Shown here piece after piece: positions 15,640-52,440 of a stretch of 64,000 bases of DNA. The notes under the pieces were generated by a model. It saw only the letters and a program-made list of their open reading frames with translations, was not told where the DNA came from and searched no databases. The position numbers and the translations under genes are program-made. This DNA is from Octopus vulgaris (Eukaryota), in NCBI GenBank assembly GCA_951406725.2, contig OX597820.1:69998001-70062000 (forward strand), in the 5' to 3' direction. Positions within the stretch are counted from its first letter, which is position 1; the number at the start of each line of letters is the position of its first letter.

Positions 15640-16190
15640 CGTGTATATATACGTCGCTCATTTTCATATGTTTGCTATGTCAACTACACACATCTTTTAT
15701 CCTTTACTTTACTATTTTCAGCTTGAAACCTCCTCTGATATGTGGTATTTGTTAAATGAGAGAGTTTGGTGTTGCTAACCTCATCAGCGTATCTTTGAAG
15801 ACACCGAGAGACTTTTGAGGAGAATATTGAAGAGCTGTGAGCTCTCAAAACCCAAGATGTAGTCTCTGGTCCTGTAACCTGATGGCAATTTTTGGATTTT
15901 TGGCACTATGCATTGGCGTCCCGTCTGCTATTGGTGTAACTTTCAGTGCGAAAGTTTGTTAGAAGTTTTTCTAAGATTTTCCAGATGTATATCACTGTAT
16001 ATTTTCCCCGCCTTCGTTTTAGGGAATAGAATTATAACTTTTCAGCTTCTCCCAGGAGCTGACAGGTCACATTGAGGCGATCTGTATGTAGCTTCGCTGG
16101 GTTGCTTCGAGTTCGGTCGTTAACTTTACAGTGTACTGACCATAACTGGGAGAAGTGATGTAAACAGTTGGGAACAGATATGTGCGCGTT

Positions 16191-16222
<32 letters not shown>

Positions 16223-16532
16223 GTAGAAATATGTTACGAAAAGAAAATATAAAATACACTGGAAATGTAAGGGTAAAATATGAAAAATCAACGAAAATGC
16301 ATATTGCAAATAGAAATAGGCTGTTTATCACAAGTAGTGACAAATATATACATTTAGATTGACTGAATTAGTAATACTTTATTATCATCTTATAATCATC
16401 TCATAATAATGGCCTTTATGACTCGTATTACTACTTCAGTCAATCTAAATGTATATATTTGTCACTACCTGTCATAAACAGCCTATTTCTATTTGCAATA
16501 TGCATTTTCGTTGATTTTTCATATTTTACCCC

Positions 16533-16572
<40 letters not shown>

Positions 16573-16686
16573 TAGTTATCGCCAAGCTAATATGGTAGTC
16601 CATAAATATAAGACTAAAGCTGCCGTTGATTAGCTCCAAGAGACCATCGCCTCTAGCTAGCTATATGACACAGATATGTGCGCGTT

Positions 16687-16760
<74 letters not shown>

Positions 16761-16771
16761 ATATTCATATA

Positions 16772-16822
<51 letters not shown>

Positions 16823-17035
16823 GTAGAAATATGTTACGAAAAGAAAATATAAAATACACTGGAAATGTAAGGGTAAAATATGAAAAATCAACGAAAATGC
16901 ATATTGCAAATAGAAATTGGTTGTTTATCACAGGTAGTGACAAATATATACATTTAGATTGACTGAAGTAGTAATACGAGTCATAAAGGCCATTATTATG
17001 AGATGATTATAAGATGATAATAAAGTAAGAGAATA

Positions 17036-17077
17036 AAACGAACCAGTGGTTTACGCCGTGAAGGCTATTCATCGTTT
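17036..17077 (-). ncRNA. Hammerhead-like motif, variant core (family A pLTR)
   Basis: AAACG-ATGAATA-GCC ttcac GGC-GTAA-ACC act GGT-T-CGTTT. All three stems pair, but the core deviates from CUGANGA/GAAA. A second copy lies at 17713-17754 (+). Confidence 0.4.
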
Positions 17078-17218
17078 GAACAACACAGGTTAATATACGG
17101 TCTCAAGTCTAATAGTTCCTGAGAAAAAAGATTATTTGTAAGGGAGGTAAGTAGTTCTGGAATTAGAGATGTGAGAGATGTAGGTAGTGTATAGGGTTTA
17201 GTGGTTTCAAGTGAAGAG

Positions 17219-17615
17219 TTAGTGGTGTTCTGTATTGAGTTGTGTGTTCATATTTAGTTGGGAGAGAAATTTGTTGATGAAAAATGTCTCTTTATTCAGC
17301 CTTTGTTGCATTGTGGTGTTCTGTGAGCATTGGTAAAAGTGGAATATTTGGAAATTGGGATTAAGATTCCTGGCGCATCTTTCTATGTGTTCACTCACTT
17401 TTAACTGTCTGTATTGTGGGTGACGGATTTGCTCTTTGTGAAAGGTGATTCTTTGACGGAGCGAAATTCCTGTTTGTCCAATATAGAGTTTACCACATCC
17501 TATGCATGTCATGACATAGATTACATTTGCTGAGGCGCAGGTGAAATTTGATTTGATCTTAAATATTTCTCCTTGTTTGAATTGGAATTCTGAACCCTCC
17601 AGAAGGTGGGGGCAT
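17219..17615 (-). pseudogene. GIY-YIG endonuclease C-terminal fragment (Penelope-like)
   Basis: C(ASA)NVIYVMTCIGCGKLYIGQTGISLRQRITFH...VSEHIERC...RLNKETFFINKF, a typical PLE GIY-YIG motif set. Confidence 0.88.
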
Positions 17616-17920
17616 CCCTTACAAATAATCCAGAACTACTTACCTGCCTTACAAATAATCTTTTTTCACAGGAACTATTAGACTTAACACCGTATATTAA
17701 CCGGTGTTGTTCAAACGATGAATAGCCTTCACGACGTAAACCACTGGTTCGTTTTATTCTCTTACTTTATTATCATCTTATAATCATCTCATAATAATGG
17801 CCTTTATGACTCGTATTACTACTTCAGTCAATCTAAATGTATATATTTGTCACTACCTGTCATAAACAGCCTATTTCTATTTGCAATATGCATTTTCGTT
17901 GATTTTTCATATTTTACCCC

Positions 17921-17964
<44 letters not shown>

Positions 17965-18129
17965 TAGTTATCGCCAAGCTAATATGGTAGTCCATAAATA
18001 TAAGACTAAAGCTGCCGTTGATTAGCTCCAAGAGACCATCGCCTCTAGCTAGCTATATGACACACGAACCTGTGTCCATTATAACCTTCGAACAGGGGAG
18101 GTCAGTCGCTTCCCCTTGCTGGTCAGACA

Positions 18130-18172
18130 TCTGCAGACATGTTTCAGGGTATTTGCTCTTTATCAATGCAGA
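18130..18172 (-). ncRNA. Minimal type I hammerhead-like motif (family B)
   Basis: TCTGCA-TTGATAA-agagcaaataccct-GAAA-CAT-GTC-TGCAGA. Confidence 0.55.
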
Positions 18173-18527
18173 GTAGCCAGACCCAGCAGGCGTCGCTACT
18201 AACCGTAGATGTCTGACCAGCAAAGGGAAGCGGCTGACCTCCCCTGTTCGAAGGTTATAATGGACACAGGTTCGTGTGTCAAATAGCTAGCTAGAGGCGA
18301 TGGTCTCTTGGAGCTAATCAACGGCAGCTTTAGTCTTATATTTATGGACTACTAAATTAGCTTGGCGATAACTATTAATATCCAGTACCGCTGCCGTAGT
18401 CTCCTTTAGAAAGACTTAGAAATTTTTATATTTCTATTTTTGAAAACCAGTGGATGTATTCCACTGAAATTAGGTAAATAATCCTTCGAACAGACGGTTA
18501 GTAGCGACGCCTGCTGGGTCTGGCTAC

Positions 18528-18570
18528 TCTGCATTGATAACGGGCAAATACCCTGAAACATGTCTGCAGA
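18528..18570 (+). ncRNA. Minimal type I hammerhead-like motif (family B)
   Basis: TCTGCA-TTGATAA-cGGGcaaataCCCt-GAAA-CAT-GTC-TGCAGA. 6-bp stem I, palindromic stem III ACATGT, core UUGAUAA in place of CUGAUGA. Confidence 0.6.
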
Positions 18571-18788
18571 TGTCTGACCAGCAAGGGGAGGCGGCTGACC
18601 TCCCCTGTTCGAAGGTTATAATGGACATAGGTTCGTGTGTCATATAGCTAGCTAGAGGCGATGGCCTCTTGGGGCTAATCAACGGCAGCTTTAGTTTTAT
18701 ATTTATGGACTACCATATTAGCTTGGCGATAACTATTAATATCAAGTACTGCTGCCGTAGTCTCCTTTGGAGAGACTTAGAAATTTTA

Positions 18789-18819
<31 letters not shown>

Positions 18820-18837
18820 TGTATATCTTTTTATCTA

Positions 18838-18894
<57 letters not shown>

Positions 18895-19964
18895 ATATAT
18901 ATATATATATATATATAGGGCAATGACCTACTACTGGTAGACACGCAATCTAAAACAACCTGAACAAACTCGAGCCGCTGGCGACAAAGCCGTCAACTAT
19001 CAATCGTCACCCACAGCCCCAGCAAGCTCGGTTAGATGAATGGATATTTTTTTTCTTTTGGCAGGGGTGAGGGTTATTTTATTGGGACACCTTGCAAGAT
19101 GAAAAACAAATTATCAGAGGACAGATGAACTGAATAGACTCAATGACCACCTAAATAAAACATCTATATTATTATTGTTGTTGTCGCTACTGCTATTATT
19201 ATAACAACCAACTATCGGGAATTATAACAAACACTATCGGGAATTGTGTTTATTGATTTATATATTTTTCTGGATTTTATTTTTATATCTTTTTCATATA
19301 TACTTGTTGTTGTTTCTCCTTTTGATTAATGAACCCCATCACCACCACCGCCAGTTTTTTTGTTGCATTTTGACTTTTAACATAGACATCAATGTGTTGG
19401 GCCATTGTGACAGATAAAAGAAATCATGATTATTATAAATAAGTAAATGAGTGGAAACGTTACCGGTGGATGTGTTAAATAATAAGGCACTAAACGAGAA
19501 TGACTCTTCCCAGGCACAACAAAATATGCTTCAACGCACGAACTCACATAAAGAATCTTGCAAACCAAATCCAAAAACGAAATGAATATTATAGTTAATC
19601 ATTGAATCATAGAACCCTTTCCTACTGGCTGACAACTGGTAACAACAACAACAACAACAACAACAATAATTCTTTGGGATTTAAATAATTCACCTCTGGA
19701 AACATAGGTGTTTTGTTCAGCATCCTTAAACAAAACTTATTTAGGGACCTTTTGAGCAGGATGGACTACTCAACCTGAAAACAATTCTAACTGGCCCCAC
19801 CTGCGAGGTCATGCGCTGTTTATCTTGAGATCATTATGTCGCCCACATATAGCTGTGATGCATGTGCCTGGTGTAATACCGCTAAGCATGTTGTCTAGTG
19901 TGCTAACAATTCTGCTAACACGCGGCCTTATTCATAATAATAATAATAACCCTTTATATAATAA

Positions 19965-22219: not shown

Positions 22220-22379
22220 CATATGCATATATATAAACATATATACACGCATATATGAGTACAGGACACCAAAGGGACGTCGAACACTTAGAGAAACGAA
22301 AACATAGACACAAACCGCGATCCTACGACCGCGAGTCCGCTGCCCTAACCACTAGGCCATTGCGCCTCCACACACACAC

Positions 22380-22878
<499 letters not shown>

Positions 22879-35005: not shown

Positions 35006-35305
35006 AGTAAAGATTATTTGCCAATATAACATGGCAGTTCTGATTTAGGGCGAATATTGCTGTAATTTAGCTCCAAGAGACATCGTCTCCATCTGGCTAT
35101 AACGCAATTTGTGTCCTTATATGTTCGAAAATATAAGGACACAGATTGCGTCGTATAGCCAACTGGAGACGATGCCTCCTGGGGCTAAATTACAGCAACA
35201 CTCGTCCTGAACTAGGACTGCCAAGTTATATTAGCAAATAATCTTTACTCTAGAGTACTGTTGCTGAATATCTATCTTTGAGAGATTTACAAATAGCAAT
35301 TTTCT
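35006..35305. mobile_element. Fold-back insertion related to PLE family B, with 13-bp TSD
   Basis: About 120-bp arms centred on TTCGAA (35124-35129). TSD agtttatccgatg at 34993-35005 and 35306-35318. Arms are homologous to 18020-18092. Confidence 0.75.
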
Positions 35306-35886
35306 AGTTTATCCGATGTTCTAGCGATTCTGCCAACAGGTTTGCCCGTCCACCAAATCCACTCACAAGGGTTTAGTCGACTCGGGGTTAGAGTAGAAGA
35401 AACCCAACGTCGGACTGAGCCCATTTGGTCTCGAGTTCAATCCCACTGCATGAAACCTTGGGCGAGTGAGATCTACTAAAACCTCGGGCCGACCAAAGCC
35501 GACGGAAAGACGGAGACCGAAAGAAACCCGTCGTGTGTATATATATGTGTGTGTGTGTGTGTGTGTTACTTTGTGTTTTGTCACCCACCAGCGCATGAAA
35601 ACCGGTGCTGCTTTGTTAACGACACCGTAATTAAGCATTTCGGCGAATAAGTACCAGATTTAAGACAATAAATATACTGAGGTCTTTTTGTACGACTAAA
35701 CCCTTCAGGGTGGTGCCCCAAAATGGCCGCATTTCAATGGCTGAGAAAGTAACACACACACATATGCATGTTTGTATGTATATATATATATACATATATG
35801 TAAACAGAAAGAATAAAATCATTAAAAAATGAATGAATTTTATCAGTGTCCAGTATATCTATCTATATATATATATATAGATATAG

Positions 35887-50514: not shown

Positions 50515-50855
50515 TGAAAGAATGAATAGAACCAAAAGTAAGATGGAGTACGATTCGACAGCTTTTTAATGACCACTACAAATGTTTCGATTCAACATAG
50601 ATCCACATATGTACAGGATTTAAATTTAAATCCTGTACATATGTGGATCTATGTTGTATCGAAACATTTGTAGTGGTCATTAAAAATCTGCCGAATCGTA
50701 CTCCATCTTACTGTTAGCTCTATTTATTTTTCACTGACGAAAAGCGCCTAAACCTACAATTGGTAGTATGCCATAATACTGCTGGGTGTCTGGTAATTCT
50801 AAGGGTGAACGAGCTCTGTTTTGTTCTCTAATACGTTCTTAACGGGATACACCTC

Positions 50856-50860
<5 letters not shown>
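50515..50860 (+). mobile_element. PLE-derived fold-back element
   Basis: Loop-less palindrome 50537-50712 (88-bp arms) containing an HHR 3' half (GAAAC-ATTT-GTA-GTGGTC, 50661-50678). An isolated CTGACGA lies at about 50734. The element ends in (TA)n. Confidence 0.6.
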
Positions 50861-51735: not shown

Positions 51736-52440
51736 TGTAAAATGCCCAAGTATGTAAACCTACATACAATTAGTAGTACACCATAATACTGCTGGGTGTC
51801 TGGTAATTCTAAGGGTGAACGAGCTCTGTTTTGTTCTCTAATACGTTCTTAATGGAATACACCTCAATTACATATATATATGCATGTATGTATATATATA
51901 TATATATATATATACATACATACAAATTTATGTATATACACATACATATGCATGCACCCATACACATGTGCACACACACACACACATACACATTCCCATT
52001 CCGTCCACGCACATACGCCAACACATACACACACACACACACAACGACACTCACCCATTCATACAGGTACACCCACCCATTCCTATAGCTGTGAGCCTCT
52101 CAGAACGACATTAACACACACGCACAAAGGTCCTACCACACACTCACAGACTGTGCACACAAACACAAGCACACACACACACAGAGAGTTAATACCATAC
52201 ACATGCCACCACACGCTACCATACATATACACGCTACCACACACACAGACGCTAACACACGCACTGACACTAACACACACACACACACACAAACATAGTG
52301 ACCATTTTTACACTCTCCTGTCCCAGAAAGCACTTTCGCTTCATTCCTTCTACTTCCCGTGACTTCAGAAATGTAACCGCACGTGATTGTTGGCGATTCC
52401 CCCCCCCTGCCTTTCGTCCTGGACTTCCCTGTTTTTCCTG

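Follow-up and report, generated by a model that had tools for sequence, protein, structure and literature searches.

Non-LTR retrozymes of animals are high-copy, non-coding units of 150-450 nt with a GC content under 50%, strong self-pairing and a type I hammerhead with a short palindromic helix III (PMC7229834 and bioRxiv 10.64898/2026.07.22.740005, in their available portions). The 361-nt repeat family found here in Octopus vulgaris is like them in all of these respects, and the retrozymes nearest to it in size are the mussel units of 350-390 bp (PMC7229834, in part). Unlike the retrozymes covered by those portions, it has a U3-A8 core and an A-U pair at the base of helix II. The 2026 preprint (bioRxiv 10.64898/2026.07.22.740005) links retrozymes to Penelope-like elements (PLEs); as far as its available text goes, non-vertebrate cases lie outside its scope. 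By analogy with it, the 361-nt family probably works like an animal non-LTR retrozyme, that is, as a non-autonomous PLE derivative. PLEs themselves leave insertions with a partial tandem, an adjacent inverted and 5'-truncated copy, a tail of 30-40 bp and a bias for microsatellites (PMC8557442, in part), and the available part of PMC3846280 gives the same signature. For an anole PLE, two internal RT start sites account for the tail, hammerhead cleavage was dispensable for insertion in vitro with uncut RNA as the main template, and the 3-8 double swap C3G/G8C partly restored cleavage (PMC11167929, in part). Eight of nine Xenopus dimers did not cleave in vitro (bioRxiv 10.64898/2026.07.22.740005, in part). 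The U3-A8 swap is not new, since U3-A8 covariation has been published for about 1,300 Schistosoma PLE hammerhead matches (PMC4209133, in part); no activity measurement for U3-A8 hammerheads was found in the literature searched, as far as the portions available extend.

The window, the whole stretch of 64,000 nt that was analysed, holds the 361-nt repeat between two (TA)n tracts read from the sequence, which are the likely target site: one at 17923-17960 and the other, with a related microsatellite, at 18788-18918. With (TA)n on both flanks, any target-site duplication is masked. The insertion starts with an inverted, 5'-truncated arm of 249 nt on the minus strand (17958-18206; unit positions 288-361 and 1-175), which meets the left-hand (TA)n tract at unit position 175. 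It continues on the plus strand with a full 361-nt unit (18207-18567) and a partial second unit (18568 to about 18784-18787; positions 1 to about 217-220) that runs into the right-hand tract. The locus thus totals the inverted arm and 1.6 direct units, with one predicted hammerhead per strand. The segments 18207-18437 and 18568-18798 form a direct repeat that is 93% identical at a spacing of 361, and the inverted arm complements 18494-18742 at 97%. The three arms have 175 nt in common, in which 4, 5 and 1 private substitutions were counted; these differences fit one insertion followed by neutral decay.

A preliminary description of this DNA had presented a non-coding unit of about 360 nt that ran from one cleavage site to the next. 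The 361-nt spacing bears out the length, and the end of the unit at the GUC of 18564 was well placed, this triplet standing at 18562-18564 in a type I hammerhead layout. The proposed start just after another predicted GUC does not hold, nor do the cleavage-site-to-cleavage-site bounds: position 18207 follows the inverted arm and is the inversion junction, homologous to a point 3 nt downstream of the predicted cleavage site, and the three post-GUC bases are missing before it. The tandem plus-strand copies exist as a direct repeat of the unit and not as hammerheads, which stand one per strand. The absence of coding capacity was confirmed, as the longest Met-started open reading frame (ORF) of the circularised unit has only 25 aa on the plus strand and 51 aa on the minus strand. 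A simple pattern search of the unit found neither Pol III A/B boxes nor a plus-strand TATA box. In its length of 361 nt, GC content of 0.43, folding z of -5.6 and longest ORFs of 25/51 aa, the unit has the properties of a retrozyme unit.

A generic type I hammerhead descriptor that allowed either C3-G8 or U3-A8 was run on both strands of the 64 kb. It matched exactly twice, at 18534 on the plus strand and at 18166 on the minus strand, both times with UUGAUAA; a match of equal helix I length occurred in 3 of 40 Markov-shuffled windows (mean 0.075). The core UUGAUAA with its U3-A8 pair, the GAAA and the GUC are all present, at 18534-18564 and at 18166-18136. The predicted plus-strand hammerhead spans 18528-18570, with a predicted cut after C18564. 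It is built of an open helix I of 6 bp (18528-33/18565-70), the core from U3 to A9 (18534-18540, with U3 at 18534 and A8 at 18539), helix II (18541-44/18551-54) closed by the loop 2 CAAAUA (18545-50), the GAAA box (18555-18558), a palindromic helix III ACAUGU of 2 bp with a 2-nt loop (18558-63) and the GUC cleavage triplet (18562-18564). The second predicted hammerhead lies at 18130-18172 on the minus strand, with U3 at 18166 and a predicted cut after 18136. Both motifs therefore read UUGAUAA as previously described, the second of them on the minus strand within the inverted arm; because both come from one insertion, they are not independent evidence of maintenance.

Both copies at the locus carry a private defect. 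In the plus copy, a C-U mismatch at the base of helix II leaves 3 bp; in the family majority the basal pair is A-U and helix II has 4 bp, an A at 18541 accounting for 81-84% of the depth in the DNA runs X2, X4 and X9. This majority A closes helix II, its pair probability rising from 0.00 to 0.97. The minus copy has an A-C mismatch in helix II (18157), at a position absent among the family variants listed. The fold constrained to the hammerhead came within 0.3 kcal/mol of the free fold for the majority sequence and within 1.3 kcal/mol for the window. The core differs from that of the usual hammerhead by U3-A8, and the basal pair of helix II is A-U where G-C is usual. Rfam yielded no match of any family in the window at the gathering score, and three scans of narrower stretches with E relaxed to 10 brought up no hammerhead; this is a gap of the library and not a structural failure. 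The miRNA and snoRNA matches that Rfam did return were set aside as microsatellite or chance matches. By analogy with studied retrozymes, a hammerhead with this U3-A8 core may cleave itself.

Two known kinds of motif are close to this hammerhead. The pseudo-LTR hammerheads of PLEs, among them the U3-A8 variant of Schistosoma Cercyon elements, share with the locus the U3-A8 covariation, a palindromic helix III region and the arrangement of dual motifs on opposite strands 100-700 bp apart (PMC4209133, in part). The motifs in that portion are minimal: their helix II is long (7-8 bp), they have G10.1-C11.1, and their loop 1 is poorly defined, whereas the motif of the locus has a canonical architecture of 6 bp, 4 bp and 2 bp and no linked ORF. 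In the terms of the same source, it has the 'canonical' metazoan type I layout and not the minimal PLE form. With the full-length hammerhead of Schistosoma mansoni (PMC2632901, in part) it shares the loop 2 CAAAUA and an internal loop 1 in which U18571 stands on the 3' strand and UAC (18525-27) on the 5' strand, and it differs from it by the core swap and the helix sequences. The triple IL1.U1 / IL1.C8 / L2.A6 of S. mansoni would correspond to U18571, C18527 and A18550, a tertiary contact suggested by the letters alone. None of these three positions appeared among the best 40 of the 112 family variant rows.

Parts of the stretch were present in 20 of the 24 public sequencing runs listed, which belong to 9 studies and carry four organism labels. 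For the family comparison, a permuted unit (18300-18660) was used as the reference at 80% likeness in four runs of four studies, and 4752, 4040, 1881 and 51 contigs matched the unit per run. Variants were taken from the 40 best-supported of 112 rows, under a ranking rule that we infer, with a lowest maximum share of 0.22. Among these 40 rows no other letter was seen at U3 (18534) or A8 (18539), which suggests that UUGAUAA is the majority core of the family; a C3-G8 minority of 3-22% may exist. The preliminary description had called UUGAUAA a maintained variant, and this applies to the family and not to the locus. Neither of two outcomes that would have spoken against the description was encountered: CTGATGA was not seen as the family consensus, UUGAUAA being the apparent majority among those best 40 of 112 rows, and the junction is not unique to the locus, as the 361-nt continuity recurs in other copies that are 9-18% divergent.

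Within helix III, TA replaces AT in the loop, the two positions changing at near-equal depth (19/19%, 11/11% and 20/20% in X2, X4 and X9), with contig counts at the two positions of 70/69, 76/74 and 49/48. The equal depths suggest that the two changes sit on the same molecules and so keep the palindrome, whose two forms have computed self-duplex energies of -6.0 vs -6.2 kcal/mol. A loop 2 variant was also observed in three DNA or unclassified runs: the adjacent letters at 18548-18549 change at similar depth (13-27%), and the loop still begins with C and ends with A.

Position 18431 was bridged, with at least 31 letters on each side, in 7 of the 24 pieces listed (X2, X4, X9); the bridging pieces are 9-18% divergent from the window, and two of them may be one locus. 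Because such divergent copies bridge 18431, no ORF lies between the tail and the hammerhead. Loose ends with AT-rich sequence behind them gathered at two sites, at 18381 (unit position 175; at least 16, 18 and 14 contigs in three runs) and at 18423 (unit position 217; at least 17, 21 and 19 contigs). These two preferred end sites are 42 nt apart, much as the two RT start sites of the anole PLE are spaced (PMC11167929, in part), and are the points where both arms of the locus end: the inverted arm uses position 175, and the direct arm stops, in its second unit, at 217. Strand-changing joints were found in other copies too, making up 5 of the 15 joints listed, at varied places. In four of these five inversion joints, one side falls within 18521-18576, close to the hammerhead; this is a hint only, as that interval was chosen post hoc and 72 further rows lie beyond those listed. 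Joints that 'go back 361' were rejected as evidence for arrays or circles, for they merely reflect the permuted reference. Among the contigs listed, none held a whole unit or two consecutive hammerheads; among the matches listed, none came from a run recorded as RNA. In X11, a run guessed to be RNA, 51 contigs matched, 39% continued into unlike sequence and none of those listed spanned the unit, so that they carry no information for or against circles. No match was obtained when metagenome contigs were scanned for the exact pattern. A dip in contig depth was noted at 18495-18533 in the DNA runs, where such depth is not interpretable. The family is high-copy, non-coding and retrozyme-like, and is probably a new non-autonomous PLE family. 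The literature listings searched, limited to open-access main texts and with cephalopods covered, held no description of it, and the supplements of the cited papers may already list the 361-nt family or canonical motifs with U3-A8.

Folding was explored beyond the hammerhead itself. A long rod is predicted on the plus strand at 18478-18619, where it would prolong helix I to either side of the cleavage site, and by this model it would keep the two ends of a monomer together. Only 1 of 13 minority alleles in the rod was damaging, compared with 6.3 +/- 1.4 expected (P 0.0004), in a test that was chosen post hoc on 40 of 112 variant rows with non-independent alleles; the sole damaging allele has a matching change at its partner (18526/18573). 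For the free circular fold of the whole unit, 9 of 31 alleles were breaking vs 12.4 expected, which is not significant (P 0.10). The majority letters lowered the energy of the circular fold by 11.1 kcal/mol; placed at random, the same changes raised it by 11.0 +/- 5.8 kcal/mol (60 trials). The folding z of the unit was -5.6 and that of its reverse complement -4.7 (60 shuffles). A local hairpin upstream (18500-18528) was discarded, since its pair probability was 0.03 or less and the long rod was preferred.

The features of a PLE insertion are present at the locus: the partial tandem with an adjacent inverted 5'-truncated copy, and, for tail and target, the two end sites 42 nt apart and the AT-rich flanks seen in three runs. 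The locus is in this like the insertions of endonuclease-bearing PLEs (PMC8557442, PMC3846280 and PMC11167929, in part), which have the same partial tandem and head-to-head inverted 5'-truncated arm, an optional tail (30-40 nt vs 42 nt here) and AT-rich or microsatellite targets; unlike those PLEs, as described in these portions, it has no RT or GIY-YIG coding sequence in the unit. At the locus both the inverted arm and the (TA)n at the ends stand out clearly, and the words 'inverted' and 'microsatellite' are absent from PMC7229834. PLEs also exist in this genome, as a GIY-YIG fragment (PF01541, E 1.1e-7) adjoins the locus. We therefore consider it probable that the locus is an insertion of a high-copy 361-nt U3-A8 hammerhead family copied into (TA)n by PLE enzymes in trans. 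That the enzymes are supplied in trans follows from the unit encoding nothing.

In the mechanism that we propose, source copies elsewhere would be transcribed as an RNA of more than one unit, and the hammerhead would cut it at GUC, likely aided by the pairing of two palindromic helix III segments. The long rod would then hold the ends of the monomer for ligation to a circle. A PLE protein would nick (TA)n and begin reverse transcription at an internal site, position 175 or 217; copying would proceed over more than one unit, and a 5' inversion would yield the head-to-head arm. As copies end at 175 or 217, yet some pass position 231 and the hammerhead, the template would have exceeded one unit in length or been a circle. 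For cleavage, dimer dependence, ligation and circle formation the model is that of studied retrozymes (PMC7229834, in part), and by that likeness these steps may take place here. In its fullest form, this reading makes the family a very high-copy, tertiary-stabilised retrozyme with fixed U3-A8 and A10.1-U11.1, invisible to Rfam, cleaving as dimers, giving 361-nt circles and leaving a full PLE footprint, a combination that we put forward tentatively and at somewhat below an even chance.

The main competitor differs from our preferred explanation in the template only. According to it, the family spreads from uncut linear multimeric RNA, and the U3-A8 fold is slow or inactive and is kept for structure or protein binding with no circle formed. 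PLE hammerheads cleave poorly in vitro, and the basal pair of helix II is A-U and not the usual G-C, both of which suit this explanation. Selection for cleavage would instead be expected to leave an intact core, tertiary nucleotides of the Schistosoma type and a loop 3 swap that keeps the palindrome, as found here, and comparable mussel units of 350-390 nt cleave and give abundant circles (PMC7229834, in part). Because the anole PLE prefers uncut RNA and 8/9 Xenopus dimers remained uncleaved in the available accounts, we rate circle and uncut linear multimer as about even templates; the complete linear version, with its inactive fold, is a serious contender and falls a little short of probable.

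If this fullest form is correct, circular retrozyme RNA would be tied directly to the target-primed insertion of PLEs outside vertebrates, and surveys built on a CUGANGA core would undercount such families. Should circles be found, the family would allow a direct test of circular vs linear RNA as PLE template. The importance is modest, since hammerhead-bearing tandem units and the U3-A8 swap have both been published already. The family is nevertheless a clean natural test case of a canonical-architecture hammerhead with the U3-A8 swap, in which the palindrome-preserving loop 3 change supports the dimer model and a non-coding unit carries the tail and inversion marks of PLEs.

A less favoured explanation is that the unit is the pseudo-LTR and tail of an autonomous PLE, so that the locus would be a truncated insertion with no independent non-autonomous life. 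Architecture and tail signature are indeed the same as in autonomous PLEs, and a rare ORF-linked form could have been missed, with 732 loose-end rows beyond those listed. The characteristic feature of an autonomous PLE, an ORF for RT and GIY-YIG, is absent, and copies bridge the place where it would be expected; the tail region runs straight into the hammerhead in the 7 of 24 listed pieces described above. The unit has no ORF of its own, and a tblastn search of 150 PLE-type proteins against it gave marginal matches only (best E 0.001). We regard this explanation as improbable, and the non-autonomous family with enzymes in trans is retained.

The preliminary description had seen in the locus itself the layout of a monomer, from cleavage site to cleavage site, that could circularise; on this model the locus would release a 360-nt RNA. 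The 361-nt spacing, a 5' end only 3 nt from the homologous cut site and the strong self-pairing (z -5.6) speak for it. They are outweighed by the single plus-strand hammerhead, the inversion junction at 18207 and the private helix II mismatch; furthermore, in a read-through RNA that includes the inverted arm, the whole plus hammerhead is predicted to pair with that arm and to be buried in a long duplex. A plus-strand transcript carries a single hammerhead, so that at most one cut could be made in it and no unit-length RNA would be released. We consequently give the monomer very little credence. With 1.6 units and one hammerhead per strand, the locus also falls outside the definition of an active retrozyme by two consecutive hammerheads (Li et al., in part). 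It counts as one slightly decayed insertion from a retrozyme-like family, without active-retrozyme status, and the copy is likely a dead end. Least credible of all is that the motif arose by chance or through mis-assembly of microsatellite-rich sequence, for which the missing Rfam match and a nearby rearrangement or mis-assembly (the deleted duplicate at 16174-16672) could be cited, against a null rate of 0.075 per window, three arms each with substitutions of its own (4, 5 and 1 over 175 nt) and thousands of related contigs in independent studies.

The neighbouring PLE is a 5'-truncated element on the minus strand (16820-17925). It comprises the end of a GIY-YIG ORF, a Cys-rich linker that is presumably Neptune-like, an inverted arm at 17629-17925 and a 3' UTR that runs out into (TA)n. 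Its GIY-YIG fragment lies at 17219-17635 on the minus strand; the homologues that it matches at their C-terminal part have about 745 aa, and 2 of the 5 scanned have RT and GIY-YIG. The element has the (TA)n tract 17923-17960 in common with the hammerhead insertion and the same layout of inverted arm and (TA)n. It was rejected as the autonomous partner of the 361-nt family because its sequence is unrelated to that of the unit, the best match being 10 nt long (E 0.68). A degenerate hammerhead-like stretch was noticed in both arms of its 3' UTR (17717-17760 on the plus strand, 17075-17032 on the minus strand), and this stretch does not fit the type I descriptor. The segment 16174-16672 is an internally deleted duplicate of 16670-18064, 97-99% identical, which joins pieces of both elements and is a local duplication or a mis-assembly.

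Other repeats were observed in the window. A distant relative of the 361-nt unit is found at 35017-35306 (nhmmer E 2.5e-10 and 1.2e-4). It too is 5'-truncated and has the head-to-head inverted form, and it lacks the hammerhead part. At 50515-50860 and 51762-51870, a repeat of about 190 nt ending in (TA)n is present twice, together with a 220-nt palindrome followed at about 50735 by CUGACGA, which resembles core 1; these repeats are possibly another PLE-type family. A broken coding-like fragment at 15690-16170 on the minus strand, of which one frame was translated, is presumably similar to LINEs of the CR1/L2 type at their 3' end. A microsatellite at 22312-22629 is flanked by the head of a short tRNA-like repeat, present in two copies inverted to each other. 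The window as a whole is AT-rich (GC 0.26-0.43) and microsatellite-rich, with many copies of a SINE-like repeat of about 450 nt that may be an octopus SINE.
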